The notes under the pieces: generated by a model
Database searches by the model: none
Told to the model about the DNA's origin: nothing
What the model saw: the letters and a program-made list of their open reading frames with translations, nothing else
Translations under genes and position numbers: made by a program
In this document: piece after piece, positions 4,462 through 63,935 of the stretch
Numbering within the stretch: the stretch's first letter is position 1
How the letters are laid out: each line of letters opens with the position of its first letter
Virus record (IMG/VR): IMGVR_UViG_3300045988_147882
Direction: 5' to 3' (one strand)
Length of the DNA stretch: 64,000 nucleotides
DNA from: a virus

Positions 4462-4567
4462 CAACTCAATCAGAGTTAAGTAACCCGTGAGGGGGAAAAT
4501 TATGTTTGTATCAATAACAATTCAATCAATGTAGCCGGAAGCGTCTGGCTACGACCTGAAGGAATGG

Positions 4568-5266: not shown

Positions 5267-5369
5267 GAAAATGGCGTTAAAATGGCGAAGTTTCTGTTTG
5301 CTAAACTTGTCAATAACGATTACCTTTACTGATGTAATAAACTAAAAGTCAAACCATTAATTCAGAATT
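5267..5369 (+). promoter_or_regulatory. Conserved ~100-bp promoter/leader repeat, copy 1 (before erf)
   Basis: AAATGGCG x2 at 11-bp phasing. TTTG at 5297-5300 and TACCTTTA at 5321-5328 (20-nt spacer, Bacteroides -33/-7 geometry). Leader CTGATGTAATAAACTAAAAGTCAAACCA. Confidence 0.6.
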
Positions 5370-46337: not shown

Positions 46338-46341
46338 AAAT

Positions 46342-47655
46342 ATGATTATAAGCCCGTTTACCCCACTGTTTTTTTCTCCGTCTACCGATAAATTTGGAGC
46401 GAAGAGTAAATATGTGCAATTATTCGCACGTACAGACAGGATTTTTGTTGAATTGATTTTGACAGCCAAAGAGCAGGAGCCTATAGTTTACATTAATAAT
46501 CTTTTAAGTAATATATCTACACCTGTATCATTAAGCTCATGGAAGATGAATGATGATAAGATTCTTTATTTCTATAACATTTCATTGCTTCCATGTGGAT
46601 ACTATACTGTAACAGTTAATGGGAATACGAGTGAGATTTTTAAAGTTACGGACGATGAATGTGAGTTATCAGAAACCAGCCTTATTCAGTATTCAATGAA
46701 AGATAATAAGCAGCGTCTTGATGCTGTCTGGTGGATAGATGGGATGCAATACTTTTTTGATTTTCGCGTTCCTGGTGGTTTCAAAGATAACGGATGGACG
46801 TTCGGTGTGGATAATGAGCAGTTCGTGACCTCTGATGAGGATATTGTTGAGCTATTCAGCCACGAATATACAACAGTATTATTCACGCTTGGAAATGGGA
46901 TGGGATGCCCTGTGTGGTTTGCTGAATTATTGAATCGTGTCTTATGCTGTAATTACGTCTACTTTGATGGTGTTCGATATACCAGAAAGGAAAGTAATGT
47001 TCCAGAACTTAACCAGCAAATAGAGGGATTGAAGAGTTTTGTGTTCAATCAAATGTTACAGAAGGTAAGAACGATGAATCCAGTTTTGGAATGGAATAAC
47101 CAGCTTGCTATGAGGTGTGTACAAAGCGGGGCTTATAGGATAGCAGATGATGAAGGAATACGTAGTATCAAGTATGGTTCAGAAAGTGAGGTTGCAGAGG
47201 TCGGAGCATATATCAATATGACTAAGGCTATTCCTAATACTGGAGTTTCTATTAATAGTGATACTATGGTTACTGTCAACAGTATTCATCACCCAGGTGT
47301 TGATGAAAATTCATATTGGGATTTGATTGCAATCAAGACGACTGACATAGATAACAAGTATATTGGTAGAAGAGGTTACGGTAAACTTACAGTTAATGGA
47401 CTGGATAGACTAAAGAACGATTTGGACAACGGTTCGATAAATTTGCGTGCTGTACTATATAAAGGAGATTCGTATACTAACCTCATTGAAGGGAGTGCAA
47501 TTAGTAGGGATGGTGTATGTGTCTTGAAAGGTATTAACGGTGGAGATATTGGTGCTCTGAAGGAGTTCCAACTTTATCTTGATAATGTCTATGATTGCGA
47601 CATAGATAATCTTGGTATGACCATTGAGCTTGTATGGGTATATGAAAATGATTAA
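46342..47655 (+). CDS. Tail structural protein (putative)
   Basis: 437-aa ORF in the tail module. Confidence 0.5.
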   Translation: MIISPFTPLFFSPSTDKFGAKSKYVQLFARTDRIFVELILTAKEQEPIVYINNLLSNISTPVSLSSWKMNDDKILYFYNISLLPCGYYTVTVNGNTSEIFKVTDDECELSETSLIQYSMKDNKQRLDAVWWIDGMQYFFDFRVPGGFKDNGWTFGVDNEQFVTSDEDIVELFSHEYTTVLFTLGNGMGCPVWFAELLNRVLCCNYVYFDGVRYTRKESNVPELNQQIEGLKSFVFNQMLQKVRTMNPVLEWNNQLAMRCVQSGAYRIADDEGIRSIKYGSESEVAEVGAYINMTKAIPNTGVSINSDTMVTVNSIHHPGVDENSYWDLIAIKTTDIDNKYIGRRGYGKLTVNGLDRLKNDLDNGSINLRAVLYKGDSYTNLIEGSAISRDGVCVLKGINGGDIGALKEFQLYLDNVYDCDIDNLGMTIELVWVYEND

Positions 47656-47666
47656 AAAAGAGAATT

Positions 47667-50600
47667 ATGACAGAAACAGAAAAACAACAGATTATTAGCC
47701 TTGTGTTACAAGCGTTGAAGACAAACTGTCTTACAATAGAGCAACTGACTGATACAACAGAGCTATCCAAAGATATGTACGTTGAAGTTAGTGGCGGTCG
47801 GAAAATATCTATTGATTTACTTTCAAGTACCATTGCTAAAATGGTGAATGGGGATTTTGATGCATTAGTGGAGAATGTCAATAAGATTGCAAAAGATTTA
47901 TCGGATGGAGACGCCGAGTTATTGAAACGTATAACAGGAGTGTCTGATAAATCCAATCCTTTGACTGACCCATTTAAAAGTATTGGCTCTTTTACTACTA
48001 TTGGTAGCTTTAAAGATAAATTAAAAACAATGTATTCCGGGGATTCTTCTATTGGGAATTATCGGTGTATTTTGTCTGTTGATTCGTCTAAGATTCCTGT
48101 AAATATACAAATTGAACGGTTGGAGCTTAATAAGGTTTGTCAATCATTCACTTCGTGTATACAATTAGCTACCATGTCAGACAATGCCGAAGGTGTATAT
48201 TTAGGTACAGTTTGTACAATCTCACGAATAGGTATTGTTTCCAATGAGAGTGTTACATGGGGCAAATGGACATCTGTAATAAATGGCTTTGAGGAAAGGA
48301 TAGGAAAAGCGAACGGTATCGCTCCTTTGAACGAAGAAAGTAAAGTTCCTTCTGAATGTCTGCCTGAACCGTTGTCTCTTGGGGAAGGTGAAGAAGAAGC
48401 TTTCCCCGGCAACCGTGGAAAGTCTTTGGAAGATACAATGAAAAATATCCCTTCCGATATAATCAAACCGGGTTCTTTCTCCGTCCTGTCTGACGCTTCC
48501 TATCTCGATGTGTATTTTAAGAAAGTGTCCAAAACAACCGGTAAAGAAACGGATGACAGCTTCCGTCTGCCTTCCGCTACCCTTGAACAAGCCGGCCTTT
48601 TGTCCGCCGAGGATAAGCAAGCCCTTGAGGATATGAAGAGCGGCACGCCCGCTGACGATGTAACACACCCCATCGTCATTGTTGATGAGATCCGCCCATT
48701 GAAAGACGGCTACTATACCCTTGAAACCGCTATTGCCGCCATTGTCTCCTATCAACAGGAATCTGGCGTCAAATATGAGCGAACGGGTCTCATCATTACT
48801 TACAAAACAGGCGAGTATGAAATGGAAACCCGGCAGTTCCAGGGTGCTGTGTCCGATTTTGCGACCCCTTCTCTTTGGAAACCCTTCGGGAATGGTGGTG
48901 GCGGTTCCGTTTTTGAAACTTCCGATGAACCGGCGGAAGGGGGAAAGGACGCCTTTTCAACTGGTGGCGCCTATGCCTATGTTCCGGCCAACCTCGACGT
49001 AAACGTGGAAACAGAAGGCATTGTAAAACTTCAGATGAAGAACGCTGCCGGTGAAACCCTTGGCGATGAAGTGCAGTTCGCTATCGGCACGGGTGGCGGC
49101 GGTCAAACTGGTGGTACCATTGTTGCCATTGCTTTCCAGTCGACACCTGTCTATGGCTCTTACGGCTCCACGCTACGAACCTTTGCCGCCATTCGTTCCG
49201 TGACCTCGAACGGTGTCGAATCCTCTGACAACCTGATTGAGAAACTGGAACTCGTAGACCGTGAAAGCGGGCTTACCGTCTGGACTGAAACCGTCAACAA
49301 AGCATCTTCCGGTGACATGAAGGACTTCTCCTTTGAACTGGACTTCACCACATACTTTACGGCTGCCGGTACTCGGAAATTCAAGCTGATAGCCACTGAC
49401 GAGAGCGGCAACACCGGTTCCAAGAATGTCAATGTAACAGCTGTTGATATTACCTGTACCTGTGTGCAGGTGCTCAACTATACCCCTGAAACTCTGCTTA
49501 CTCCGACAACTGAAAGTTTCAGCCTTCCACTCTATAAGTTCGGAAACAACACCTCTGATAAAGGTATCAGTGCCCAGGTTGACATCAAGATTAATGGTGA
49601 ATGGCAATCCCTGTCTACCACCGTTGTAAATGACAACTACTCGCACTCCGTTGTAATCCGCCCTGCTTCCCTCGGCCTAGAACACGGTACCTATCCCTTG
49701 CGCATCCAAGGAACGGATGTCGCATCTGGAGTGAAAGGAAATGTCATCTACACGGCTGTCATGGTAATTGACCCGAATAGTTCCACACCTCTTGTCGCCT
49801 TGAGATACGATGATAAAAACGGTGGAGTAGTCCGACTGTACGAAACCGTAGAACTTGATGTTGCCTGTTATGACCCGTTGGAAATGACTTCACCCGTCAG
49901 CGTGAAAGCCAATAACGTGCAGGTAACACAAATTGCTGCCAGTCGTAACAAAACCTATCAGGTCAAACAACAACTGCAGGGCTACAAGGCTGACGGCACC
50001 GATACGGTCAACTATACTGCCGTATGCAAGGACGTGACTAGCGAACCTGTCCGGGTGACAGTTAGCGGTTCCGCCATTGACGCCGCCATAAAAGAAGGCG
50101 CCATCTATAACTTTGACTTCTCATCCCGTACCAATCAGGAAACTGACCATAGCATTGTCAGCGGTAATTATGAAATGAAAGTGGACGGTGCCAACTGGAC
50201 TACCAACGGTTTTGGCACATTCTTGGGTGAGAACTGCCTTCGCGTAGCCGAGAATGTGGGCGTGTCATTAAACCATGCCCCGTTTGCCGGCTCGTCCATC
50301 GAATCCAACGGTGCCGCCATCCAGTTCGCTTTCGCTTCCAAGAACGTGACCGATGATGATGCCCTGCTCCTTAGCTGCTATGACGAAACGTCCGGTGCCG
50401 GCTTCTATGTCACCGGCCGGGTGGTCGGCATCTTCTGTAACAATGGCGTTTCCCGTCGTGAAGAACGCGCCTATCGACAGGGTGAAAAGATAACCGTAGC
50501 CGTGGTTGTTGAACCTGCAAGCAACTACGTTGAACGTGACGGCACACGGTATTCCATGATGAAACTCTTCCTCAACGGTGAGGAAGTCGCCTGCCTTGGT

Positions 50601-53600
50601 TATGTTCCGGGCGGCGGCTCCCTGATTCAGACCAAGTATATAACGATGGACGGCAAACTGGGTGATTTGTATCTTTATTACATGATGGCCTGGAACTCCT
50701 ATATGGAATGGGCACAGGCGTTCAAGAACTACCTTGTCCGTCTGACTGATACCGAGGTAATGGTGAAGGAATACGCCTTTGAGGACGTCCTTAAAAGCCA
50801 GACGGCCGAGGGTAGCACCCAAAGCCGCCCGTCGGCTGCCGAAATCTATTCACGCGGTATGCCTTACATTGTCGAATGCCCCTATGAAGGCTCCGATATA
50901 GAAGCACTGGACGGCACCACTTCCACCAGTACGAAGATATACATCACGCTCTATTACTTTGACCCCGAACGTCCGTGGCGTAACTTCAAGGCCGTGAGTG
51001 TCCAAACCCGCAACCAGGGAACCACCTCTGCCAAACGCCCGGTAAAGAATAAACGCTACTACCTCGCCAAGAGCAAAGGCAAAAACAAGGACACTCGAAT
51101 CATACTACTTAATCCGGACGATACGACGGAGGAAGGACGCCGTGCAATAGCCTTGGCTGCCATCAACAAAGTACAGGTCGGTGATAATACAATCCCGGTC
51201 GATGTCATTACCGTAAAAGTCGATTACTCCGATTCCGGCAATGCGAACGACTGCGGCGCCTGTGAAATGATGAACGTTACATACCGTGCCTTGGGTGGTA
51301 ACTATATGACACCTGTCCAACGTGCATTTGACGGAACATTTGACAGCGGTGACTTGCATATCGAAGGCTTGCAGATGAACCACTCCACCGCCAATCACCC
51401 GGTAGCCACCTATCGGTGTAAGGATGACAGCCTGCAAAACGTCTATTTCCATGCCAAAGGCAACTGGAAAGAAGACAAAGGGGAACAGTTCGCCCTCGGC
51501 TTCAAAGATACCCCCGGCTATAACAAAGGTTGCCTGAATTATGGTGACTTCATAGAGTTCTTCGGTACTCCTGACGAAACTTTAGACGCAATTGAGACAC
51601 GCTTCAAACAGACTGACGGCCTCGATACGGACAGTGTGTACCTGCTTTCCCTGTATTGTGGCAGTTCGTACCGGATAATGAGGTATCAGGACAGCTCATG
51701 GAAAAAGCAGTCCGGTTCCATGAAGTATGAAAACGGCAAATGGAATGTCACCGGTGACGTCCTGAATCCGGTTGAAGGTTTCGAACTTCTTAACTACCAA
51801 GGTATGGACTGGTTTCAGGGCGTTGGTTCTGTTCAGGATATGATGGCCATGAAAACGGACAAGTCCTCATGGGTTCAAAAACTCGTGGATAACGGAACTA
51901 TCTCTGCTGATACCTTCCCGGCATGGACTTACTACTTTGAATCGCTTGTCGATGATGACCAGCTCGCCATTGATTACGCTTTGGGTAAGAAAGTGCCCTA
52001 TAACCTCTACCGATGGTTGCGCTTCTGTGATTCCTGCGATTACTCCAAAGGCGGGAACTGGCAAAGAACATGGAAGGAAAACCTGTATAAATACGCCTGC
52101 CCAGAAAGTGTCTTGAGTTATGACATCTTCACCGACTACCTTGCCGCCACTGACCAACGCGCCAAGAATATGCAGCCGATGTGGTTCTTGGAAGAGTATG
52201 CTTCCGTAACAGACGGTGTGTACAGCTCCGAGGATGCCATGCGCATGTACCTGAATAAAATCTATGACTGCGATACGCTCAACAGCAAGGACAACGACGG
52301 TGGTTGCACGGTTGATGCCGAGGTGGACCCCAACCGGACGAGCGATGAAACATTCACTAACCCTTATGCTGGCTACGGCTCCGTTCTGTTTAATAACATC
52401 TATCTCCAGCAAGTAGTGTGGACTGACTCATCCGGTACGGAACTCTCCCTGCGTACTGTTGCCGCCGCTATGCGTAACGTTCAGGCGACCATTGACGGCG
52501 TCACCCTGCACCCGTTCTCACCCGAAGGAGCTACGCATTTCTTCATTGACAAACGGCTCAAAAAATGGCAGAAACTGGTTAGTTCTTACGACGGTGAACG
52601 GAAATACATCTCCTATACAGCCACCTCTGACGCTATTTACTTCTATGCCCTGCAAGGTCTTGGACTTACCGCCCTTCCGTCCTTCATTGAAAGACGTTGG
52701 CGTATTCGTGACGGCTATTTCCAAACAGGTGATTTCTTCAGCGGTGTAATTTCCGGGCGCGTATCTTCCAAACCAAACGCCACCATCCGGATTGTCGCCG
52801 CTAAAAACGGTTACTTCGGTGTTGGCAATGACGCTAGCGGCAACCTTTCCGAAAGCTGCTTCCTTGAAGCGGGCGAAGAATATGTATTCACCAACTTCTC
52901 ACATGAGGAAGGCGCCTTGCTGTATATCTATCAGGCTGACCGCATGAAGCTGCTCGACCTGTCTGAAATCTCCCTGTCAAGTACGGTGAGCTTCTCCGCC
53001 ATGCAACTTGTGGAAACCCTTATCTTGGGCTCTGACACCCATACGGAACAATCCATCGGTTCTTACGCACCGCTTACCTCGTTGAACTGCGGCGAAATGC
53101 CCTTCCTCGTATCACTCGATATCCGGAACACACAAATCGCTACGCTCGTCACCGACAAATGCCCACGTATCGCCCATATCAATGCGTCCGGTAGCAAACT
53201 GGAGAACATCACGCTTGCAGAGACTTCTCCGATAAACGACATCTCTCTTCCACCAACAATGACAAGCCTCCGTTTTGTCGGTCTTCCTGAACTGACCTAT
53301 ACCGGTCTTTCCGCCCCGTCCGGCCTGCAAATCGAATCCATGCCGAACGTCCAACGCCTGCGTCTTGAAACGTCGCCTCAACTTGACGCCATTCAGATGC
53401 TCCGTGACGTCCTCGCTTCACAAGCGGCATCCCGTAAACTTTCCATGCTCCGTATCTCGAACATGACCCTGAAGGCTGACGGCTCCGAGCTTCTTGCCAT
53501 TCTCGAATATGGAGTTGCCGGAATGGATGAGGACGGCAACAGACAGGATAAACCGGTAGTCAACGGCACGTATGAACTGACAGTTATCCGTGAAACGGAT

Positions 53601-53840
53601 GAAATCGAATCCCTTGAATCCGGTATTGACGGCCTTGTCATCCTTACCGTCATAGATGCCTACATCGACCTGATCAACTGGTTCAATAATGAGTCTTATG
53701 GCGGAGAACCGTACTACGATAACGTAACGCTGGACAACATCAATGAAGTCCTTGAATATTATAACGGCGAAACCTACGAGGAATATCTCGAACGGTTTGC
53801 TGAAGACAATATGGATATTAATGATTTAATTAACAAGTAA
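47667..53840 (+). CDS. Giant tail fiber / host-interaction protein (2057 aa) with C-terminal leucine-rich repeats
   Basis: LRR-like run (LDLSEISL...LVSLDIRNTQIATL...INASGSKLENITL...LRFVGLPELTY). Composition switches to GC-rich near 48.5 kb. Lies directly upstream of the DGR targets. Confidence 0.7.
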   Translation: MTETEKQQIISLVLQALKTNCLTIEQLTDTTELSKDMYVEVSGGRKISIDLLSSTIAKMVNGDFDALVENVNKIAKDLSDGDAELLKRITGVSDKSNPLTDPFKSIGSFTTIGSFKDKLKTMYSGDSSIGNYRCILSVDSSKIPVNIQIERLELNKVCQSFTSCIQLATMSDNAEGVYLGTVCTISRIGIVSNESVTWGKWTSVINGFEERIGKANGIAPLNEESKVPSECLPEPLSLGEGEEEAFPGNRGKSLEDTMKNIPSDIIKPGSFSVLSDASYLDVYFKKVSKTTGKETDDSFRLPSATLEQAGLLSAEDKQALEDMKSGTPADDVTHPIVIVDEIRPLKDGYYTLETAIAAIVSYQQESGVKYERTGLIITYKTGEYEMETRQFQGAVSDFATPSLWKPFGNGGGGSVFETSDEPAEGGKDAFSTGGAYAYVPANLDVNVETEGIVKLQMKNAAGETLGDEVQFAIGTGGGGQTGGTIVAIAFQSTPVYGSYGSTLRTFAAIRSVTSNGVESSDNLIEKLELVDRESGLTVWTETVNKASSGDMKDFSFELDFTTYFTAAGTRKFKLIATDESGNTGSKNVNVTAVDITCTCVQVLNYTPETLLTPTTESFSLPLYKFGNNTSDKGISAQVDIKINGEWQSLSTTVVNDNYSHSVVIRPASLGLEHGTYPLRIQGTDVASGVKGNVIYTAVMVIDPNSSTPLVALRYDDKNGGVVRLYETVELDVACYDPLEMTSPVSVKANNVQVTQIAASRNKTYQVKQQLQGYKADGTDTVNYTAVCKDVTSEPVRVTVSGSAIDAAIKEGAIYNFDFSSRTNQETDHSIVSGNYEMKVDGANWTTNGFGTFLGENCLRVAENVGVSLNHAPFAGSSIESNGAAIQFAFASKNVTDDDALLLSCYDETSGAGFYVTGRVVGIFCNNGVSRREERAYRQGEKITVAVVVEPASNYVERDGTRYSMMKLFLNGEEVACLGYVPGGGSLIQTKYITMDGKLGDLYLYYMMAWNSYMEWAQAFKNYLVRLTDTEVMVKEYAFEDVLKSQTAEGSTQSRPSAAEIYSRGMPYIVECPYEGSDIEALDGTTSTSTKIYITLYYFDPERPWRNFKAVSVQTRNQGTTSAKRPVKNKRYYLAKSKGKNKDTRIILLNPDDTTEEGRRAIALAAINKVQVGDNTIPVDVITVKVDYSDSGNANDCGACEMMNVTYRALGGNYMTPVQRAFDGTFDSGDLHIEGLQMNHSTANHPVATYRCKDDSLQNVYFHAKGNWKEDKGEQFALGFKDTPGYNKGCLNYGDFIEFFGTPDETLDAIETRFKQTDGLDTDSVYLLSLYCGSSYRIMRYQDSSWKKQSGSMKYENGKWNVTGDVLNPVEGFELLNYQGMDWFQGVGSVQDMMAMKTDKSSWVQKLVDNGTISADTFPAWTYYFESLVDDDQLAIDYALGKKVPYNLYRWLRFCDSCDYSKGGNWQRTWKENLYKYACPESVLSYDIFTDYLAATDQRAKNMQPMWFLEEYASVTDGVYSSEDAMRMYLNKIYDCDTLNSKDNDGGCTVDAEVDPNRTSDETFTNPYAGYGSVLFNNIYLQQVVWTDSSGTELSLRTVAAAMRNVQATIDGVTLHPFSPEGATHFFIDKRLKKWQKLVSSYDGERKYISYTATSDAIYFYALQGLGLTALPSFIERRWRIRDGYFQTGDFFSGVISGRVSSKPNATIRIVAAKNGYFGVGNDASGNLSESCFLEAGEEYVFTNFSHEEGALLYIYQADRMKLLDLSEISLSSTVSFSAMQLVETLILGSDTHTEQSIGSYAPLTSLNCGEMPFLVSLDIRNTQIATLVTDKCPRIAHINASGSKLENITLAETSPINDISLPPTMTSLRFVGLPELTYTGLSAPSGLQIESMPNVQRLRLETSPQLDAIQMLRDVLASQAASRKLSMLRISNMTLKADGSELLAILEYGVAGMDEDGNRQDKPVVNGTYELTVIRETDEIESLESGIDGLVILTVIDAYIDLINWFNNESYGGEPYYDNVTLDNINEVLEYYNGETYEEYLERFAEDNMDINDLINK

Positions 53841-53842
53841 CT

Positions 53843-54631
53843 ATGACGAATGAACAAAGCGCAACGCTGCTTCGCTTGAATAAACAGGCACAAGTGGCAG
53901 CACTGAACGCCGTGGGCTTCTCGGATGTCACCGAGAATTCCCGCGCATCTGAATTTGGACAACGTATCAAGTGGGCCGCCGGTCTGCTTGATCTGCATCT
54001 TGCCTGTAATCGTATTTCGGATAACTCCAAGGCATACTTTACTGCTGCCGAATGGAACTCCCTTACGCTCGCTAATAAGCAACTGTATATCAAACGTGGG
54101 CTTCGTATCCGTGCCCATGGACACTCCTTCGTAATCGCCGCCCAGGAGTGCTATAATGCCGATATGACTACTACCTTCTATTGGGGCGGTCAGGGTAAAG
54201 CCATAGACGGCCTGAACCAAAAAGGACTGGGTGCCATGTACGGCTGCTTCACGGGTGAGGAAGATACCGACCTGATTATCACCGGCCTGAAAGACCAAAA
54301 CAATAGCGGTGTAATCGGTGCGCCGGCTGCCGAAGCCGCCCGTGCATACCGTGCCTACACTTTGGAAAGTGACGGTATCGAGGATGAATCCAACTGGTTC
54401 CTTCCTTCATCCGGCCAAATGCTTCTGATGTACCGCTACCGCGATAAAATCAATGAGATGATGCGTACCTTTTGGAGTAGTGACAGTATGCTGATGACTG
54501 ATAAATACTACTGGTCATCAACAATTTGGGATACTAACTCCGCCTGGGCGTTCGAACTGAATACCGGGCGTATTACGAATCAAAACAAAAATTCAGCCCT
54601 TCTTCATGTGAGAGCTGTTGCTTCCGAATAG
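53843..54631 (+). CDS. DUF1566-like (C-type-lectin-fold) protein, non-diversified paralog of the DGR target
   Basis: Shares the N-terminal LLRLNKQ..., WFLPSSGQM and YYWSST motifs with the next gene. Its 3' end has no nucleotide match to the TR. Confidence 0.65.
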   Translation: MTNEQSATLLRLNKQAQVAALNAVGFSDVTENSRASEFGQRIKWAAGLLDLHLACNRISDNSKAYFTAAEWNSLTLANKQLYIKRGLRIRAHGHSFVIAAQECYNADMTTTFYWGGQGKAIDGLNQKGLGAMYGCFTGEEDTDLIITGLKDQNNSGVIGAPAAEAARAYRAYTLESDGIEDESNWFLPSSGQMLLMYRYRDKINEMMRTFWSSDSMLMTDKYYWSSTIWDTNSAWAFELNTGRITNQNKNSALLHVRAVASE

Positions 54632-54656
54632 TATTAACTTAATATTATACAATAAA

Positions 54657-55466
54657 ATGGATAAAAATATCGCCAGCGCCATGCTTCTGCGCTTGAATAA
54701 ACAAGACCAGATAGAAGCCTTAAAATCAATAGGTTTTACAACCGTGAATGAAAACACCCCCGCAAGCGACATCGCCAAATATATGCAATGGTCAGGTACG
54801 CTTCTTGACCTTTCTTTGGCTACGCTCCGGATTGAAGACGGTGAACAAGTCTTTTTCACGGCTTCCGAATGGAACTCCATGAGCGCGAATAATCGCTCCA
54901 AGTATATCCGTATCGGCATCCGACTTCGCGCCGAATGCCACCAGTTCATTATCGCCAAAAGCGACTGCGTTGACGCAGGCGGCAATAAAACGTTCAAATG
55001 GGGTGGCTACGGAACTGACCTACGCGGCTTGAAAAACTACGGCAGTGGTAACCAAGGACTCTATGATACCTTCGACGGCAAGGAAAATACCGATGTTATA
55101 ATAGAAACCCTTGCAGGCGTCAAGGACACCCAGGGAACTGTCGGCACCCCTGCCGCCGAAGTTGCCAGAGCCTATAAAGCCTGTACGCTTGAATCTGACG
55201 GAATTGAAGATACAACCGTGTGGAACCTGCCCGCATTGGGTGAACTTATGCTTATGGCCAAGTATAAAACCGAAATCAATGAGCTCATAACTTCTATGTT
55301 TGGCAATCAAAATATATTTACAAACGACTGGTATTGGTCTAGTACCGAATATGACGCTTCCAGCAGTTGGTACGTGTACTTCGTCAGCGGCCACGTCAAC
55401 GCGTACGGCCGCCAGTACGCGGGCCGGGTTCGTCCCCTCGCCGCAATAAACACTTTATCCCTTTAA
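54657..55466 (+). CDS. DGR target (variable) protein, DUF1566-like C-type-lectin fold with C-terminal VR
   Basis: WNLPALGEL, WYWSSTEY and a C-terminal ...RVRPLAA. The last ~30 codons form the VR. Same frame as track ORF 54618; ATG 54657 matches the paralog's start. Confidence 0.8.
   Translation: MDKNIASAMLLRLNKQDQIEALKSIGFTTVNENTPASDIAKYMQWSGTLLDLSLATLRIEDGEQVFFTASEWNSMSANNRSKYIRIGIRLRAECHQFIIAKSDCVDAGGNKTFKWGGYGTDLRGLKNYGSGNQGLYDTFDGKENTDVIIETLAGVKDTQGTVGTPAAEVARAYKACTLESDGIEDTTVWNLPALGELMLMAKYKTEINELITSMFGNQNIFTNDWYWSSTEYDASSSWYVYFVSGHVNAYGRQYAGRVRPLAAINTLSL
55356..55446 (+). repeat. DGR variable repeat (VR), 91 bp
   Basis: Aligns without gaps to 56113-56203 with 14 mismatches. Nine of these are at TR adenines. 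The last 29 bp are identical. Confidence 0.85.
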
Positions 55467-55495
55467 TTCTTTGTCCCTTAGATAGTTAGCTAAAT

Positions 55496-55518
55496 AAAAG
55501 CCCCGGCAGGGGCTTTTT
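55496..55518 (+). promoter_or_regulatory. Hairpin 50 bp downstream of the VR (terminator and/or DGR target-recognition hairpin)
   Basis: AAAAGCCCC-GGCA-GGGGCTTTT. The 4-nt loop fits the GRNA pattern I recall for DGR hairpin/cruciform elements. Confidence 0.5.
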
Positions 55519-55565
55519 AGCTTCACTTTTTTGAGCTAAAATTGTGTTAATTGCTTTACAGTTAT

Positions 55566-55573
55566 TAACTTTG
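55566..55573 (+). promoter_or_regulatory. Candidate -7 box (TAACTTTG) for the avd-TR-RT transcript
   Basis: Exact TAnnTTTG match 40 nt before the avd ATG. Confidence 0.3.
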
Positions 55574-55612
55574 CCCCCTCTAATACATACATTAAAATAT
55601 TAAAAAATTAAC

Positions 55613-56020
55613 ATGGCACTTACACAAGACCTTCCTATATCAAATTCGATGTATAAGCTTCTGAACCTTATCATTGATGCCCGGCAACAATTCCCCAAGG
55701 CGTTCCGGTATGAATTTGGTACGGAGTTGATGATGCTTGCCGTTCATTGTTGCGAATATATCCGTTATGCAAATACAGATATGAACCTTGAGCATCGTGC
55801 AGATTATCTGATGAAGTTTTTGTGTGAGTTTGATGCATTGAAATTACTGCTAAGAGTGTGTGAAGAACGACATTTGACCAGCCTGACTCAAACTGCCGAA
55901 ATCTGTCTGCTTGCAGAGAGCATCGGTAAGCAAAGTACCGGTTGGTACAAAAAAACGGTTGCAGATCTCCAACGGCAAAAAGCTAACGGATCGCAACAAG
56001 TCGCAAAGCCGGAGTCATAA
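55613..56020 (+). CDS. avd: DGR accessory variability determinant (Avd), four-helix-bundle protein
   Basis: 135 aa, helical. FPKAFRYEFGTEL and IGKQSTGWYKK resemble the Avd / 23S-rRNA-IVS protein family. Lies between the target and the TR/RT. Confidence 0.75.
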   Translation: MALTQDLPISNSMYKLLNLIIDARQQFPKAFRYEFGTELMMLAVHCCEYIRYANTDMNLEHRADYLMKFLCEFDALKLLLRVCEERHLTSLTQTAEICLLAESIGKQSTGWYKKTVADLQRQKANGSQQVAKPES

Positions 56021-56034
56021 TCGCCAAGGGGATT

Positions 56035-57456
56035 ATGAGTGAGCAATTAGAATTATTTATTGGGCATCCCCCCGGTGATGAGCCGGGAAAGACTAAGATA
56101 GCGGATGCAACGGCTTCCAGCAGTTGGAACGTGAACTTCAACAACGGCAGCGTCTACACGAACTACCGCCAGGGCGCGGGCCGGGTTCGTCCCCTCGCCG
56201 CAACAGGTAATATAATCTATGACATACTTCTTAGCAGTATTTTCGAAGCATCCGAAGATTGTGCCAGACAGAAAAGAACGAGTACGGATTGTGTTGAGTT
56301 TTATAATGATTATCAGTCTGCATTGGTGCGGCTATGGTATTCTATTATTTACGGTGAATATGTACCGGACTTTTCAAAAGTATTCATACGGACTTACCCG
56401 GTATATCGGGAGGTTTTTGCCGCCGCTTTCATTGATCGTGTTGTCCATCACTGGATCGCTCTTCGTATCGAGCCGATTTTAGAGGAACGTTTTCGGGAAC
56501 AAGGGAACGTCTCGAAGAACTGCCGGAAAGGTGAGGGATGTCTGTCTGCCGTGCACTATCTGAATAACATGATAGTCGAGGTCAGTGAGAATTATACTGC
56601 CGATGCGTACATTTTCAAAGATGACCTGTTTAGTTTCTTCATGTCTATCTCGAAATCGTTGGTATGGGAAATGCTGAACATATTCGTAAGGGACAATTAT
56701 AAAGGCGATGATATTGAATGTCTGCTTTACCTTCTAGCCGTTACTATCTTTCATTGTCCACAAAATAAGTGTATCAGACGCTCTCCCGTCTCCATGTGGG
56801 ACAAACTTCCCAGTAATAAAAGTCTGTTTCATAATGACCCTGACAGGGGAGTGGCTATCGGGAACCTGCCGTCGCAACTCATAGCCAACTTTCTGGCGTC
56901 TGTATATGATTATTTCGTGATGGAAATACTGGGATTCATATATTATGTACGCTTTGTTGATGACTTTTGTATCGTAGTGAAATCACCGGAAGAAATATTG
57001 TCCAAAGTCCATCTTCTTGATGGTTTCCTGAAAGAACAACTCCTTTTACGGTTGCATCCACGCAAACTGTATCTTCAGCATTATAAAAAAGGAGTCTTGT
57101 TTGTAGGGGCGTTCATTTTGCCTGGTAGAATTTATGTATCTAACAGGGTGGTTGGTAACACATATAACGCTGTCAGGAAATTTAATAGAATAGCTGAAAA
57201 TGGATTTGCAGAAGCGTATGTTGAGAAGTTTGTGAGTACGATGAACTCTTATTATGGCCTGATGAAACACTTTGCAACGTACAATATCCGCCGTAAAATT
57301 GCAGCGATGTTGCTTCCTGAATGGTGGGAATATGTTTATATCGAAGGACATTTTGAAAAGTTTGTATTGAAGAATAAATATAACCATAGAAAACAACTAA
57401 TTAAACATATCAAAAAACATGGATCAAAAAAATATCTTACCGCGTGGGATTGCTAA
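56035..57456 (+). CDS. DGR reverse transcriptase (the ORF as drawn includes the TR in its 5' extension)
   Basis: FIDRVVHHWI, AIGNLPSQLIANF (the DGR-type I/LGxxxSQ motif) and YVRFVDDFCIV (the YxDD box). Confidence 0.85.
   Translation: MSEQLELFIGHPPGDEPGKTKIADATASSSWNVNFNNGSVYTNYRQGAGRVRPLAATGNIIYDILLSSIFEASEDCARQKRTSTDCVEFYNDYQSALVRLWYSIIYGEYVPDFSKVFIRTYPVYREVFAAAFIDRVVHHWIALRIEPILEERFREQGNVSKNCRKGEGCLSAVHYLNNMIVEVSENYTADAYIFKDDLFSFFMSISKSLVWEMLNIFVRDNYKGDDIECLLYLLAVTIFHCPQNKCIRRSPVSMWDKLPSNKSLFHNDPDRGVAIGNLPSQLIANFLASVYDYFVMEILGFIYYVRFVDDFCIVVKSPEEILSKVHLLDGFLKEQLLLRLHPRKLYLQHYKKGVLFVGAFILPGRIYVSNRVVGNTYNAVRKFNRIAENGFAEAYVEKFVSTMNSYYGLMKHFATYNIRRKIAAMLLPEWWEYVYIEGHFEKFVLKNKYNHRKQLIKHIKKHGSKKYLTAWDC
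56113..56203 (+). repeat. DGR template repeat (TR), 91 bp
   Basis: A GC-rich island in AT-rich context. Contains five AAC codons in the frame that corresponds to the VR. Confidence 0.85.
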
Positions 57457-57697
57457 GCCTATCGAGCAACAGCCGGACGGAACCTGGATTGTGCGTCATC
57501 ACTTCCGGGTGGTTGGTACCAATGAGAATGGTGAGGAACTAGTAACTTTTGCCAGTTCGGAATATCCCGAGAAACCTACCTTGCAACAGATTCAAAGAAG
57601 TATTGACCGCTATCGGGTGTGTCTAACAATGTATGGAGATACAATTTCAGACGAAATAGAAAAGGTTGATCTTTCCGTGTATATGTTTACGGATTAA
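57419..57697 (+). CDS. Hypothetical protein downstream of the RT
   Basis: 92-aa ORF overlapping the RT end by 38 nt. A strong terminator follows. Confidence 0.45.
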   Translation: MDQKNILPRGIAKPIEQQPDGTWIVRHHFRVVGTNENGEELVTFASSEYPEKPTLQQIQRSIDRYRVCLTMYGDTISDEIEKVDLSVYMFTD

Positions 57698-57721
57698 TAG
57701 TTCAATTTGTTGGTTGTTTTA

Positions 57722-57748
57722 GGGGTGCTTTTCAAGCATCCCTTTTTT
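57722..57748 (+). terminator. Rho-independent terminator ending the DGR operon
   Basis: GGGGTGCTT-ttc-AAGCATCCC followed by TTTTTT. Confidence 0.7.
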
Positions 57749-57895
57749 ATTTATGGAAAAAGTAAAAATTATAATGTCTTGTTTTATAGATATTTATCAT
57801 AGAATTGATTTCCAAGATTTTCCGTTTTTGTAAAACTCGTTATTATACTCAATACATTTGTTCCATACAGAATATTTTATTAATAATTAAACGCT

Positions 57896-58189
57896 ATGAG
57901 TATGGGTATAAAAGTATTGTATGATTGGATTTTGCAATCTAACCGACCGGCACACGCCAAAGCCGGGATGTTCGTCTTTGTTGTAATGCTTGTTTTCTGT
58001 TTCCTTCTATTAGGCATTGATTTCTGTAAATCTGCTATTGTTTCTTTAACGACAACCGCCATTGCCGCAATAGTGGTTGAGTACATTCAGAAAAAGTGCG
58101 GGTTCATCTTTGATTGGCTTGACGCATTAGCTACTGTTTTGCTTCCTGGGCTGATTACTGTGTTTTCAATATTGGTAGTAACTTTATGA
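57896..58189 (+). CDS. Membrane protein, holin-like
   Basis: 97 aa with three hydrophobic helices, at the head of the lysis cassette. Confidence 0.5.
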   Translation: MSMGIKVLYDWILQSNRPAHAKAGMFVFVVMLVFCFLLLGIDFCKSAIVSLTTTAIAAIVVEYIQKKCGFIFDWLDALATVLLPGLITVFSILVVTL

Positions 58190-60493: not shown

Positions 60494-61606
60494 ATGATAA
60501 GAATGAAAAGAAATGTAAAAGGTTGGCTCGTTTGGGGAACTGTCATCCTCATATTAATTATAATAGTCATTTTAGCTTTCTATTTTATTCAGACCAAAGG
60601 TAAGTTTGCGGATAAACAGACCGACTGGGGTGAGTTTGGAAGTCTATTAGGAGCGATTGCAGGATTAATAGCATTCGTCGGAGTTTTATTTACATTAAGA
60701 CAGAATAAACAGCAATTCTTGAATAGCGAGGATAGAGCTGTCTTTTTTGAGTTGCTTAGGATTTTTATTTCATATCGGGATGCCTTGCAAGTGAAAAGAA
60801 TAGATTGGGTATATGATGAAAAACAATGTGAATGGAAAATAACTCCTTACAATGAGTTTTGTACACCAGAAAAAACTTATCGACAGATTTATGTAGAGTT
60901 ATACCATACTTTCTATTTGGAAATAAGAAGAGGTATTCCTGAAAATTTTTCCAAAGAGGAATTTGTAAGGAGGATTATTCCCCAAAATATGTCTAAAGAG
61001 CAATGGATGCTTATATATGGTCAATTGAAGGCTGCCATTAACAACATTTATTCAGAGCATGAATTTGGAATACATAAAGGAAAGATTAATATTTATCCTG
61101 TACATATAAACACTTATGATTACCTCTGTTTAAATGCGATTAAGATCTATTTTGAACAGAATAATTTCAAGCCCATAGCTGAAGCTTGTGCTAAAGCCGC
61201 TGATCATTGTTTTGCCCCATATAAAAATCAACTTGGCACATATTTTAGGAATGCTTATTATATTTTGGAAATGACTTCGGAATTCACTTCGCCCCTAAAA
61301 TATTCGAATATATTTCGAGCGCAACTGTCAAAGTATGAACTTGTGTTGTTGTTTTTTAACTCATTTAGTTCATTATCAACAATTGAGACACGAAGGTTAT
61401 ACTTGAATGCCGATTTGTTCAATAACCTTGAGTTGAAAGATGTGCGATTGAAAGAGGGGATAAATGATGAATCTGTATCCCGCCGAATGGAATATATACA
61501 TTTTCCACCAGTCTTGTTTCAAAAGGCAAACAAAAACGAATATATGTCTAGTGATTTGTTGGAAAAATTGTACAATGTGATTCTTCCAGAAAATAATATA
61601 CTATAG
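60494..61606 (+). CDS. Putative abortive-infection protein (putAbiC-like), prophage moron
   Basis: An N-terminal TM, then WGEFGSLLGAIAGLIAFVGVLFTLRQNKQQF, which resembles the two-helix signature of the putative phage Abi family as I remember it. Very AT-rich and insulated by terminators. Confidence 0.5.
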   Translation: MIRMKRNVKGWLVWGTVILILIIIVILAFYFIQTKGKFADKQTDWGEFGSLLGAIAGLIAFVGVLFTLRQNKQQFLNSEDRAVFFELLRIFISYRDALQVKRIDWVYDEKQCEWKITPYNEFCTPEKTYRQIYVELYHTFYLEIRRGIPENFSKEEFVRRIIPQNMSKEQWMLIYGQLKAAINNIYSEHEFGIHKGKINIYPVHINTYDYLCLNAIKIYFEQNNFKPIAEACAKAADHCFAPYKNQLGTYFRNAYYILEMTSEFTSPLKYSNIFRAQLSKYELVLLFFNSFSSLSTIETRRLYLNADLFNNLELKDVRLKEGINDESVSRRMEYIHFPPVLFQKANKNEYMSSDLLEKLYNVILPENNIL

Positions 61607-62537: not shown

Positions 62538-63722
62538 TTATTCATTTTTCAAGTTGTCAAGTATTTCCCTGATTGCTTTATCAGCGTGTTTTCTCATTAT
62601 TGTGACATAGTTGAAGATTGGTCTATCTTCTTTCATTGATTGCCCGATACAGTATTCCAGTGTACTAAGAGGAATTCCCAGGTCATATCCATGTTGGACG
62701 AAAGATTTGCGGGCTGAATATAGGGTGAATTTATGCCTGATTCCTGCCACCTTGCCTAATTGACTGATTTTCCTGGCCAGCAGGTTATAGCAGGAGGTAT
62801 AGTTCTTGTATTTCCCGAATATGATTTTCCCTGTATTCTTTTTCATATACTTTTTTATAATGGGCTTTGCTTCTTCGGGAATGGAAAAGGAAATCAGGGA
62901 GTCCCCTTCTTTGGTGTTTTTGGTCTTTTTCCGGATGTAGTTTATTTCATCCGTCCGGAAATCGTATGCTAGTATGTCTACTAGGTTCATGCCGGCAAGA
63001 TAATAAGTAAGCATGAAAATGTCCCGTGTTACGTTGAGATTGTAATGCTCTAAATTTGCATCTCTGATTGTTTTGAGTTCTTCCACTGTAATTTGGGTTT
63101 CTCTCTTTTGGGTTGATGGAATCTTGGCTGTGATGAAAGGGTCGATATCGTAGGTAACGTATTTCATCTTTATGGCATAGTTGATAATAACCTTTAGCAG
63201 GGTTATGTAGATGTTGATTGTGGTGCTTGACAGCTTTGTCTTTTTGAGCCATGATATGTACTGGTTCATTCTGATAGGGGTAATATGTTCCATGAGAGAA
63301 CCGTTCCCGATGAATTGCATAAACTTGTTTGTGGCCAGCCGATAGAGTTTGTATGTCTTGGTACGTTCTTCTTCATCTATTTGGGACAGATATTCATCCA
63401 CGATATCCTCGAACTTACGATGCTTTTCTCCGTTTAACGGGTTAGTTATCATTTTGACTAATTGCGTGCACGTGAGCGAATCAGGGTAGTCCAGTTCCAT
63501 GTATCGCTTGAAATAAAGGTTGTATAGCTGTTGTAATTTTGTATTGAGAAAATCCTTGTCTGGACGGTGTACTATTTTACCGTTCTTAAACTCGTTTTCC
63601 CTTACCACTATATCCGTGGTGATGAATCTCGTTTCAGAGTTGTGTGCGACTCGAATTCTTATTTTGTGTGTCCCGTCTGATAACTTCTTTGCGGGAACTA
63701 TTACCAATGTTAATGTAGCCAT
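62538..63722 (-). CDS. int: Tyrosine recombinase / phage integrase (Bacteroides type with N-terminal arm-binding domain)
   Basis: C-terminal HKFTLYSARKSF ... LGIPLSTLEYCIGQS ... (R-H-R-Y region). N-terminal MATLTLVIVPAKK...IRIRV. The track start is 63761; ATG 63722 is preferred. Confidence 0.85.
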   Translation of the reverse strand: MATLTLVIVPAKKLSDGTHKIRIRVAHNSETRFITTDIVVRENEFKNGKIVHRPDKDFLNTKLQQLYNLYFKRYMELDYPDSLTCTQLVKMITNPLNGEKHRKFEDIVDEYLSQIDEEERTKTYKLYRLATNKFMQFIGNGSLMEHITPIRMNQYISWLKKTKLSSTTINIYITLLKVIINYAIKMKYVTYDIDPFITAKIPSTQKRETQITVEELKTIRDANLEHYNLNVTRDIFMLTYYLAGMNLVDILAYDFRTDEINYIRKKTKNTKEGDSLISFSIPEEAKPIIKKYMKKNTGKIIFGKYKNYTSCYNLLARKISQLGKVAGIRHKFTLYSARKSFVQHGYDLGIPLSTLEYCIGQSMKEDRPIFNYVTIMRKHADKAIREILDNLKNE

Positions 63723-63935
63723 AATTTGTGTTTTTAGGGTAAAAATGGCGTTTTCGACCATTATTTTTTTAACATCCTATTGTAATTTACTTATAATCAG
63801 ATTCTAATCCGGGAATTTTCCGACCATAATCCGACCATTTTATAGCGTCAAAAGTGACGTTTTTGCTCTCTATTATAGACTACTAATTGATAGGAAAAAT
63901 AGTTCGATTGTGCTTTTAATATGCTGTATATCAAT

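Follow-up and report, generated by a model that had tools for sequence, protein, structure and literature searches.

A probably complete and naturally active diversity-generating retroelement with an adenine-mutated template repeat in a Bacteroides prophage

Does a pair of repeats lying downstream of the tail genes of a Bacteroides prophage belong to a working diversity-generating retroelement (DGR), and if so, why do several of the mismatches between them lie away from template adenines? The DNA analysed here (the window; 64,000 nucleotides, IMG/VR record IMGVR_UViG_3300045988_147882) is a JGI metagenome contig from a short-read assembly. Its template repeat (TR, 56113..56203) and variable repeat (VR, 55356..55446) are direct repeats 757 bp apart and, like all features described below, are on the plus strand. 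The two align over 91 bp without gaps and, as a preliminary description had reported, differ at 14 positions, nine at TR adenines and five at G or T, with all five in-frame AAC codons of the TR changed in the VR (to TAC, TAC, GTC, AGC, and TAC). Sequence comparisons suggest that this is in all likelihood a complete, naturally active DGR whose own TR carries a tract of adenine substitutions, which may have arisen by off-target retrohoming. Save for the adenine-mutated template of the window copy, it is typical of a well-known class.

The cassette and its carrier

The cassette (53843-57456) follows the order paralog, target, avd, TR, RT ORF, which agrees with the order read earlier and can be seen in the ORF list. 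Two details of the earlier reading were wrong: it is the paralog that abuts the 2057-aa ORF upstream, with the target coming next, and the TR is not an intergenic element between avd and RT but lies in frame inside the RT ORF. That ORF (56035..57456) encodes 473 aa and matches PHROG 1423 (6.3e-58). The TR encodes residues 27-57, the bRT-like core begins at about residue 52-68, and the sequence contains no in-frame ATG, GTG, or TTG between the end of the TR and the conserved RT N-terminus. The motifs previously recognised, AIGNLPSQ and a catalytic FVDD, are present in the translation (the latter as RFVDD). The closest solved structure is Bordetella bRT (8ub7, E 6.6e-11), with IGNLPSQLIAN aligned to IGSLTSQLFAN and RFVDD to RYMDD. 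The RT also has weak NCBIfam matches to group II RT (44 bits), retron St85 (25 bits), and Drt3a (24 bits), which might suggest a group II intron, retron, or Abi/DRT defence RT beside a coincidental repeat, but the respective cut-offs of 300, 235, and 200 bits are all far above these scores. Moreover, its best solved relative is a DGR RT with the SQ motif aligned, an Rfam scan of the window detected neither intron nor retron RNA families, avd lies next to the RT, and the adenine bias between TR and VR is overwhelming; we give a non-DGR RT virtually no credence.

The accessory variability determinant, avd (55613..56020, 135 aa), is in the position expected for it. Its product matches Pfam bAvd (3.4e-10; 40.8 bits against a gathering cut-off of 40) and PHROG 3206, "Avd protein of DGR" (2.6e-35), while NCBIfam DivGenRetAVD (2e-8) falls under its cut-off.

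The target gene (54657..55466) encodes 269 aa, with gene callers using the ATG at 54657 and not the TTG at 54618 from which it had been started. The VR occupies 30 of its last 36 codons, with variable positions at 55371-55423, within a C-terminal Lcl_C/DUF1566 domain that is C-type-lectin-like. The earlier assignment to a DUF1566-like, lectin-fold protein holds: Pfam Lcl_C scores above its gathering cut-off (3.9e-9; 37.3 bits against 34.9), and Foldseek with an AF2 model (pLDDT 89.7) returned the Legionella Lcl C-terminal domain (8q4e) as top match, followed by weak matches to C-type lectins, with 4eps as second-best. At 90% identity, one cluster of the target comprises 29,189 distinct sequences. 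The preceding paralog (53843..54631, 262 aa) is Lcl_C-like and 43% identical to the target (PHROG 4245, 1.2e-35; Pfam Lcl_C 3.8e-6, under the gathering cut-off) and is not diversified. No TR-like repeat was found at its 3' end, which is not hypervariable (14 haplotypes among 64 relatives, one of them with 33 copies). In RefSeq, the element's proteins are named only "RNA-directed DNA polymerase" and "DUF1566 domain-containing protein".

The carrier is a temperate Bacteroides siphovirus-like prophage, which was found in the genomes of B. xylanisolvens XB1A, B. congonensis, and B. acidifaciens. Besides the DGR, we found terminase, portal, capsid, tape-measure, tail, amidase, and integrase genes, and the DGR separates the tail genes from the lysis genes. 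The tape-measure gene (37904-41830) and then virion-structural genes precede the 2057-aa ORF (47667..53840), which is directly upstream of the cassette and is context, not a DGR component. This ORF, presumably a tail-tip or fibre protein, matches PHROG 14959 (unknown function) end to end, had no match in a Pfam search, and has a G+C content of 47-50%, against 35-41% for the remaining phage. Gene order suggests that the target protein may be attached to the tail, and its position is compatible with the receptor-binding tip proposed earlier.

Adenine-confined variation and the mutated template

The preliminary description had proposed that VR polymorphism would be confined to positions matching TR adenines, and the population data bear this out. 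When the VRs of 42 near-identical relatives are compared with the family consensus TR, 450 differences are seen, and 446 of these coincide with TR adenines. No two of the 64 full-length relatives have the same VR haplotype (64/64), whereas the flanks, in windows of 50 to 100 bp, show 11-21 haplotypes and the TR six. One relative, L170, has a G-to-T change in its TR that was copied to its VR. Judged from these sequences, the family is plainly active in nature, with unique VRs and ordinary variation in the flanking DNA. Every DGR component tested was present, and the variation falls where a DGR would place it.

The five G or T mismatches within the window are explained by its TR. The consensus TR is carried by 57 of 65 viral and 62 of 71 metagenome copies, as well as by isolate genomes, and the window TR is an adenine-mutated derivative of it (TR'), with seven A-to-G/T changes at 56150, 56155, 56164, 56173, 56174, 56179, and 56180. 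All seven fall in the 3' half and affect adenines of AAC codons. When the window VR is compared with the consensus TR instead, it mismatches only at adenines and matches at all non-adenine positions; the five apparent non-adenine mismatches are therefore due to the seven-substitution tract in the window TR. They are not the result of RT infidelity.

A decaying or inactive remnant, in which the five mismatches are drift since the last homing, would account for the finding that only 64% of the window's TR/VR mismatches face adenines, since this share is typically at least 75% in genuine DGRs (Roux et al., PMC8144416). However, the RT, avd, and target ORFs are all intact, the RT is 96-99% identical to dozens of relatives, and the restriction of all seven TR changes to adenines of AAC codons is not a neutral pattern. 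The family's activity, and templates with heavier mutation that still drive homing, also argue against decay, which we consider highly improbable.

The window's adenine tract also bears on the length of the shared 3' end. The 29 bp described earlier are indeed identical in the window copy but are not the family-wide invariant length. Only 23 bp (CCGGGTTCGTCCCCTCGCCGCAA) are invariant, because the codon at 56179-56181 is AAC in the consensus TR. This G+C-rich end (55424..55446 in the VR) is the counterpart of the (GC)14/IMH, is identical in the TR, and is invariant across all aligned VRs and TRs. The 25-nt 3' end of the repeat occurs exactly twice in the window, against an expectation of zero from shuffles. 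Identity between TR and VR ends right after GCAA, and the TR has unique flanks (GGATGCAACG upstream and CAGGTAATAT downstream).

Origin of the mutated template

Adenine-only changes occur in 7 of 103 non-redundant natural TR copies (~7%), in tracts anchored at the 3' end. Across this census, 33 substitutions are at adenine sites and one is elsewhere (odds ratio 84, p = 2e-17), and the 3'-most AAC codon is included in 9/9 distinct multi-site TR variants. We infer that such tracts arise when mutagenised cDNA occasionally retrohomes off target, into the donor TR. By analogy with Bordetella phage BPP-1, RT-Avd would bind an RNA that runs from the 3' portion of avd through the TR into the beginning of the RT gene, and the TR would be reverse transcribed with misincorporation opposite adenines. 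The cDNA would replace the VR at the 3' end of the 269-aa Lcl_C (C-type-lectin-like) gene beside the tail genes, with the common 23-bp G+C-rich end and, 49 nt past the VR, a hairpin with a GRNA loop guiding integration. Occasionally, mutagenised cDNA may home into the donor TR instead, leaving a 3'-anchored adenine tract.

The mutated template could also be an artefact of assembly, in which VR-derived sequence was threaded into a TR locus that really carries the consensus. Besides the short-read origin of the contig, this is favoured by the existence of TR/VR hybrid contigs in the family (the start of L291 and seven contigs with avd-less joins, L057-59, L173, L204, L214, and L230), by several contigs with a TR tract equal to the 3' tract of their own VR, and by three isolate-genome copies of the window's TR lineage, all of which have the consensus TR. 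However, the window TR' is unlike the window VR, differing at 36/37, 42, 51/52, and 60/61, and a donor VR would need an unmutated 5' half, which none of the 64 VRs has. TR and VR have no k-mer of at least 21 nt in common inside the variable part, with junction intervals of only 4-14 nt, and the exact RT/TR' protein of the window is recorded from both JGI and ENA, in two contigs of differing lengths. Two further assemblies, L288 and L289, differ at 6 of 4528 positions, all within the VR. They have one fully mutated TR in common, and each VR equals this TR plus different changes. These VRs differ from the common TR only at its remaining adenines, which indicates that mutated templates are real and functional; a copying artefact cannot yield such a pattern. 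We therefore consider an artefact unlikely. The mutated template appears from these comparisons to stay functional, with fewer variable positions.

Real mutated templates could alternatively reflect VR-to-TR gene conversion, by recombination or template switching, instead of integration of fresh mutagenised cDNA. In 8 of the 10 mutated TRs with a known VR, each TR change is also in the cognate VR (L002, L044/L083, L209, L210, L224, L227, L288/289, and L292), a pattern that fits conversion as well as self-homing followed by ordinary homing; deletion-type VR/TR hybrids also exist. On the other side, the mutated TRs of the window and of L290 bear no relation to their resident VRs, and a VR renewed from the new TR would retain its fixed bases, which the resident VR does not. 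The VRs of L292, L288, and L289 have extra adenine changes relative to TR' (in L292 some of these are inside the mutated tract), as expected if TR' came first and then templated the VR. Junction homology of 4-15 nt is also short for RecA-type conversion, and at least 8 bp of identity suffices for 5' cDNA integration (Guo et al. 2011, PMC3240598). Conversion is thus possible but is the less probable origin, and we favour off-target retrohoming.

Flanking signals and comparison with known DGRs

A hairpin (55496..55517; AAAAGCCCC-GGCA-GGGGCTTTT) with a 9-bp stem begins 49 nt after the VR, confirming the GGCA-loop hairpin placed about 50 bp downstream. Known DGR hairpins have G+C-rich stems of 7-10 bp and a 4-nt GRNA loop (Guo et al. 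2011, PMC3240598), to which GGCA conforms. Relatives have hairpins with different (covarying) stems and the GRNA loops GGTA, GAAA, and GGAA at +35 to +50. The window hairpin likely serves target recognition by the DGR and probably doubles as terminator of the target gene. Unlike the VR, the TR lacks a hairpin even though the 23-bp end is common to both; no stem of at least 5 bp was found within 150 nt after the TR. The distance of 49 nt exceeds the 4-34 bp range reported in PMC3240598, and the hairpin could be a terminator only.

The TR is enclosed by a long-range RNA duplex whose upstream arm (55820..55870) is inside avd and whose downstream arm (56205..56265), part of the RT coding sequence, begins 2 nt after the TR. 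The arms contain a 24-nt inverted repeat with 88% complementarity (duplex energy -40 kcal/mol), and the pairing appears in the MFE as well as the centroid structure of a 461-nt RNA (z = -5.5). L001, a relative with 64% identity, retains the pairing with one compensatory G-C to A-U change. The duplex is a candidate counterpart of the avd:Sp "cPRT Stop".

The prototype DGR of BPP-1 (mtd-avd-TR-brt) shares with the window the order target-avd-TR-RT, an Avd, an RT aligning over the IGxxxSQ and xxDD motifs, a VR at the C-terminus of a lectin-fold protein beside tail genes, a G+C-rich 3' end common to TR and VR with a GRNA-loop hairpin 3' of the VR (PMC3240598), and a resembling avd/post-TR duplex (bioRxiv 2023.10.23.563531). 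In contrast to BPP-1, the window has no non-coding spacer, the TR being part of the RT reading frame and the downstream RNA arm likewise coding for RT, and no IMH/IMH* pair differing at a few positions, identity ending after 23 bp. Its hairpin is at +49 and not directly after the VR, its upstream duplex arm is 258 nt before the TR, its target is of the Lcl_C/DUF1566 type and not Mtd, and an undiversified paralog precedes the target. Furthermore, natural copies of the window family show adenine mutagenesis of the TR itself. In BPP-1, Doulatov and colleagues reportedly saw this in 2004 only when IMH* was replaced by IMH.

Prophage DGRs of Bacteroides are closer in setting, sharing host genus, prophage location, and an avd-containing cassette (bioRxiv 2024.11.15.621889; Hankyphage, PMC6199706; B. 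uniformis phages); the window RT has 40-42% identity with those of B. uniformis phages F1, F2, and F4. The survey of more than 1,100 Bacteroides DGRs defines its variable-protein group 1, of which 70% is prophage-encoded, partly by the fold of 4eps (bioRxiv 2024.11.15.621889), the second-best structural match of the window target. We found no description of the window phage or of mutated templates in these papers on Bacteroides DGRs, and at the DNA level the cassette has no match in the INPHARED phage collection. The best protein-level match is an unannotated faecal phage scaffold (64% RT identity). The LdtA DGR of Legionella pneumophila (DUF1566/CLec2, category "d"; Wu et al. 2018, PMC5758913) also has its VR in a DUF1566/Lcl_C-type C-terminal domain, and the Legionella Lcl C-terminal domain is the best structural match of the window target. 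LdtA is a cellular surface lipoprotein encoded on a genomic island, whereas the window target, a short phage protein whose gene is beside the tail genes, has no lipoprotein signal.

Prophage context and genes of the cassette

The window is a temperate siphovirus-like prophage, with early genes for ParB, a helicase and a methylase, genes for terminase (28409), portal (30551), capsid (33029) and tape measure (37904), and large tail genes (44346-53840) followed by the diversity-generating retroelement (DGR), an Amidase_3 lysin (58697) and an integrase on the minus strand (62538-63761). An AbiC-like gene (60494-61606; putAbiC, 1.3e-9) lies between the lysis genes and the integrase and, going by this match, is likely to be a prophage superinfection-exclusion or defence gene. 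G+C content is 46-51% across 48000-56000, compared to 31-44% in the rest of the phage, and the sign of the GC skew flips; the affected region takes in the greater part of the 2057-aa ORF as well as the two Lcl_C genes. This suggests that the tail-fibre/DGR-target module has a different origin. Two tRNA genes (2712-2782 and 4391-4461; Rfam scores of 57.8 and 54.7 bits), identical at 58 of 72 positions, share an abnormal anticodon arm, CATGTTTCTACATG, with a loop of 6 or 8 nt containing UCUA/CUA, for which ARAGORN gives a two-base "anticodon". A third tRNA-like match of 98 nt is located at 4558-4655. The odd tRNAs could be of a suppressor-like or frameshift type, or else degenerate copies lying close to the end of the prophage.

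The window has a match in JGI metagenome 3300008513, on a contig of 230,693 bp. Near-identical prophages, with reverse transcriptases (RTs) 96-99% identical to that of the window, are present in B. xylanisolvens XB1A, B. congonensis Marseille-P3132T (two copies), B. acidifaciens DSM 15896 and a Bacteroides MAG. The family was also found on 65 IMG/VR and 71 metagenome contigs, and a repeat scan of viral contigs with the 3' end of the template repeat (TR) returned the same 65 contigs. Nothing close to the cassette at the DNA level was found among GenBank phages, and the sole hit of a 24-kb DNA search was an unannotated fragment of 4.6 kb. B. uniformis phages F1, F2 and F4 carry more distant RTs, at 40-42% identity.

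The gene order given in the preliminary description (paralog, target, avd, TR, RT) was recovered in the ORF map. The RT is encoded by a 473-aa ORF (56035-57456) which contains both of the motifs described from the sequence, AIGNLPSQ and the catalytic FVDD box (as RFVDD). In an alignment to bRT, the RT of the prototype DGR of Bordetella phage BPP-1, AIGNLPSQLIAN aligned with IGSLTSQLFAN and RFVDD with RYMDD. The best PDB match, and hence the best solved relative, is also bRT (8ub7, E 6.6e-11; IGNLPSQLIAN opposite IGSLTSQLFAN), in keeping with the proposed DGR-type RT. Membership of a group II intron, retron or other non-DGR clade, which had been named as evidence against a DGR, was examined with NCBIfam profiles. 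The RT scored 44 bits with the group II intron model TIGR04416 (cut-off 300), 25 bits with the retron St85 model (cut-off 235) and 24 bits with the Drt3a model (cut-off 200). Three tRNAs were the sole Rfam matches in the 64-kb window, where no group II intron RNA or retron RNA was detected at gathering thresholds. We rejected a group II intron identity given a profile score far under the cut-off and the lack of an intron RNA, and a retron or defence RT (DRT, Abi) identity given scores under the cut-offs, the lack of a retron RNA, and neighbours consisting of avd and a repeat pair. A 92-aa ORF (57419-57697) overlapping the 3' end of the RT gene was called in every relative examined and is fused in frame with the RT in P0005, a 553-aa member of the RT cluster; its sole family match is a sub-threshold match to Pfam PAS (E 0.0028, 18.1 bits, cut-off 22.6).

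The 135-aa protein encoded between target and RT (55613-56020), expected to be Avd, passes the Pfam bAvd cut-off (40.8 bits, cut-off 40) and matches the PHROG "Avd protein of DGR" (2.6e-35), while NCBIfam DivGenRetAVD scores 34.5 bits (2e-8), under its cut-off of 80. Based on these profile matches we annotate it as Avd. Sequence searches of the PDB returned no meaningful match for either Avd or the target, so structure prediction was needed.

The first gene of the cassette is the paralog (53843-54631; 262 aa), an undiversified copy with 43% identity to the target. It, rather than the target as had been stated, adjoins the 2057-aa ORF. The paralog lacks a 3' end resembling the TR and shows no hypervariability, ruling it out as a DGR target. 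The target itself (269 aa; start ATG at 54657 according to the gene callers) has a C-terminal Lcl_C (DUF1566) domain over the Pfam gathering cut-off, which contains the variable repeat (VR); the VR takes up 30 of the last 36 codons. The best Foldseek match of an AF2 model of the target (24 homologues as input, mean pLDDT 89.7) is the C-terminal domain of Legionella Lcl (8q4e; probability 1.0, TM 0.60 on the target). The Bacteroides fimbrial protein 4eps is also among the best matches, and classical C-type lectins are weak matches ranked after these two. The VR-bearing domain is thus predicted to have a C-type-lectin-like fold, a characteristic of DGR targets, as anticipated when it was described as a DUF1566-like, lectin-fold protein. 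No second VR or remote target was found in the window within 3 mismatches of the 25-nt repeat end.

The element is a canonical, avd-containing DGR of the DUF1566/CLec2-target class, category "d" (PMC5758913), which confirms the initial observation and supports its interpretation. The DGRs catalogued in Bacteroides number more than 1,100, most of them on prophages (bioRxiv 2024.11.15.621889). As Bacteroides prophage DGRs with DUF1566-type targets are already abundant and surveyed, the DGR itself adds little.

Variation at template adenines in the prophage family

The TR (56113-56203) and VR (55356-55446) form the 91-bp gap-free repeat reported previously, with 14 mismatches, nine at TR adenines and the other five at TR G or T. 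All five AAC codons of the window TR are indeed changed in the VR (to TAC, TAC, GTC, AGC and TAC). The 25-nt 3' end of the repeat occurs exactly twice in the 64-kb window and in none of 100 shuffles.

Restriction of VR polymorphism to positions matching TR adenines, proposed as a check of the DGR, was assessed in the relatives. When 42 in-register VRs were compared with the consensus TR, the commonest TR sequence among relatives, 446 of the 450 differences were at adenines and 4 were elsewhere. The consensus TR is present in 57/65 viral and 62/71 metagenome TR copies, and in three isolate copies (B. xylanisolvens XB1A, B. acidifaciens DSM 15896 and one of the two B. congonensis prophages). When 64 full-length copies of 53400-58000 were aligned, no two had the same VR. 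In this set the TR has 6 haplotypes, and flanking windows of 50 to 100 bp have 11-21 haplotypes with one or two dominant alleles. The 90%-identity cluster of the target protein contains 29,189 distinct sequences. In one relative (L170) a G-to-T change in the TR is also found in the VR. Judged from these sequence comparisons, the element is a working DGR, because VR variation is confined to adenines, the VRs are all distinct, and a TR change has been copied to a VR.

The substitutions at TR adenines in natural VRs are skewed (A-to-G, 236; A-to-T, 161; A-to-C, 49), which could reflect RT bias or selection, and across 55371-55423 AAC codons mostly become Tyr, Gly, Ser and Asp codons. The two prophages of the B. 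congonensis Marseille-P3132T isolate (L081 and L085; RTs 99% and 96% identical to the window) have TR lineages that differ by ordinary, mostly non-adenine substitutions. A metagenome copy of the second B. congonensis lineage (L195) has all of the lineage's TR substitutions in its VR too.

Adenine-mutated templates

The TR of the window differs from the consensus at seven offsets (37, 42, 51, 60, 61, 66 and 67, which correspond to 56150, 56155, 56164, 56173, 56174, 56179 and 56180), each an adenine within an AAC codon of the 3' half (AAC to AGC, TAC, TAC, GGC and GGC). Set against the consensus TR, the window VR differs only at adenines. The five non-adenine mismatches of the window pair vanish in this comparison, which rules out RT infidelity or decay as their origin; they exist because the TR has mutated since the latest rewriting of the VR. 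Similarly, the 29-bp identical end reported as the IMH (the G+C-rich repeat end) could not be upheld: codon 56179-56181 is AAC in the consensus TR, leaving an invariant stretch of 23 bp, and the longer match is an accident of the window's copy.

Invariance of the TR, a further characteristic of DGRs, does not hold in this family, as 3'-anchored tracts of adenine changes are carried by the window TR and by 7 of 103 natural TR copies (~7%), in which the changes are at adenines only. This census covered non-redundant copies from unbiased scans, with one divergent lineage with ordinary fixed differences left out, and yielded 33 substitutions at the 26 adenine sites versus 1 at the 65 other sites (odds ratio 84, p = 2e-17); p-values for individual tracts are post hoc and descriptive only. 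Members of the 90%-identity RT cluster supplied further mutated TRs. All nine distinct multi-site variants take in the 3'-most AAC codon, and their 5' reach is variable. The departure is one of fidelity and not of kind, and the element remains a DGR.

L288 and L289, contigs of two ENA assemblies, differ at 6 of 4528 positions, all within the VR. They have in common a single TR mutated along its whole length (TR', an adenine-mutated TR), and each VR can be derived from this TR' by changes, different in the two contigs, at adenines still present in the TR'. Likewise, the VR of L292 equals its own mutated TR plus adenine changes, some of them within the mutated tract. Together with L170, these contigs directly show information flow from TR to VR. 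We take these sequences to show that templates, once mutated, are inherited and still work; the window's own TR' is probably one of them. As the TR lies in frame within the RT ORF, mutated TRs alter up to 10 residues of the RT N-terminal extension. RT function survives these changes, implying that the N-terminal segment is dispensable or not translated; no in-frame ATG, GTG or TTG was found downstream of the TR before the RT segment that aligns to bRT from residue 17 onward.

Assembly chimeras are a serious concern as a general cause of mutated TRs, since seven contigs (L057, L058, L059, L173, L204, L214 and L230) join the target to the RT by one repeat, without avd, and L291 (1-146) begins with the reciprocal TR/VR hybrid. 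De Bruijn-graph chimerism or SPAdes-type bulge collapse was rejected as the general cause on account of VRs built on a mutated template (L288/L289 and L292) and of a TR' in L290 and the window which is unrelated to the resident VR and so was not copied from it; some contigs may be affected. Furthermore, TR/VR identity at the junctions that chimeras need is at most 4-14 nt, and the TR'-bearing RT of the window has entries in JGI as well as in ENA. The avd-less joins have a hybrid repeat with the VR 5' flank and the TR 3' flank, and some show the unmutated consensus TR. They are either real 757-bp deletions, excised VR/TR recombination circles or assembly repeat collapse.

For 8 of 10 mutated-TR cases, where the VR contains all of the TR changes, VR-to-TR gene conversion is still a serious contender. 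We found no report of natural TR self-mutagenesis, TR corruption or self-homing in the literature. TR mutagenesis was reportedly seen by Doulatov et al. in 2004 after swapping IMH* (the TR counterpart of the IMH) to IMH. Treponema "TR variants" are lineage variants not given as adenine-specific (PMC4891356), and current descriptions and models treat TRs as invariant or as altered only by background point mutation (e.g., the recent model in bioRxiv 10.64898/2026.02.18.706561).

Repeat ends, RNA pairing and homing

The GGCA-loop hairpin noted downstream of the VR was found at 55496-55517 with a 9-bp stem. Its distance of 49 nt from the VR is outside the published range of 4-34 bp (PMC3240598). 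Most close relatives have a GGTA loop. In distant relatives (41-64% RT identity) the stem differs and the loop, at +35 to +50, is GGTA, GAAA or GGAA. Downstream of the TR no hairpin was found. The element therefore has the G+C-rich end common to both repeats and the GRNA-loop hairpin after the VR only that characterise DGRs. Unlike BPP-1, it lacks a spacer, carries the TR inside the RT ORF, and has no IMH/IMH* pair differing at a few positions.

A predicted long-range RNA duplex encloses the TR, in which avd codons (55820-55870) pair with the first RT codons after the TR (56205-56265) with a computed energy of -40 kcal/mol. The MFE structure of a 461-nt RNA (z = -5.5) contains this duplex, as does the centroid structure, and the pairing is kept in a relative with 64% identity (L001), with one compensatory change of G-C to A-U. 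By analogy to BPP-1, this duplex is a candidate equivalent of the avd:Sp "cPRT Stop", and only a candidate because its upstream arm is 258 nt before the TR, a geometry unlike that of BPP-1. No Avd-binding stem-loop was identified near the TR.

The hairpin after the VR and the duplex enclosing the TR fit the BPP-1 model. Under that model, RT-Avd would bind the TR-containing RNA (PMC3240598, bioRxiv 2023.10.23.563531), cDNA synthesis would begin at the TR 3' end with misincorporation opposite adenines, and the cDNA would integrate at the G+C-rich end common to the VR, its 5' end being resolved by short homology. Mutated TRs would then probably arise by occasional off-target homing of cDNA into the donor TR, as 3'-anchored tracts with variable 5' ends match the polarity of retrohoming. 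Such self-homing would be possible through the 23-bp end common to TR and VR, and its frequency would be limited by the dissimilar downstream sequence and by the lack of a hairpin there. We lean towards the view that DGR directionality is leaky in nature, with mutagenised cDNA or the VR occasionally written back into the TR as 3'-anchored tracts, giving heritable, functional templates with fewer adenines.

Non-adenine TR/VR substitutions occur in 23% of DGRs, with their cause left open (PMC5758913). Here, a natural population shows adenine-specific, 3'-anchored TR rewriting, and rewritten templates still template new VRs. If leaky directionality is true, TRs would evolve in DGR-driven bursts and not by ordinary point mutation, one explanation would be provided for multiple "non-A" mismatches in DGR surveys, and a selected VR state could be fixed into the template in one step. 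If it is general, it bears on how directionality is achieved despite the identical 3' ends of TR and VR, on the non-adenine mismatches of many catalogued DGRs, on how DGRs lose diversifying capacity, and on how TR/VR pairs from single genomes are scored. DGR finders apply an adenine-bias cut-off. The mutated template makes DGR directionality and template evolution accessible to experiment, and the family includes lysogens that can be cultured (B. xylanisolvens XB1A, B. acidifaciens DSM 15896 and B. congonensis), which allow a direct test.

In a more distant DGR (~40% RT identity; contigs L074 and L077), a 33-nt inverted repeat with 82-85% complementarity joins the DNA just 3' of the VR and just 3' of the TR (arms at 5297-5329 and 6029-6061 in L074, and at 5327-5359 and 6074-6106 in L077), enclosing avd and the TR. 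Possibly, this inverted repeat is another form of the duplex that encloses the TR in the window.
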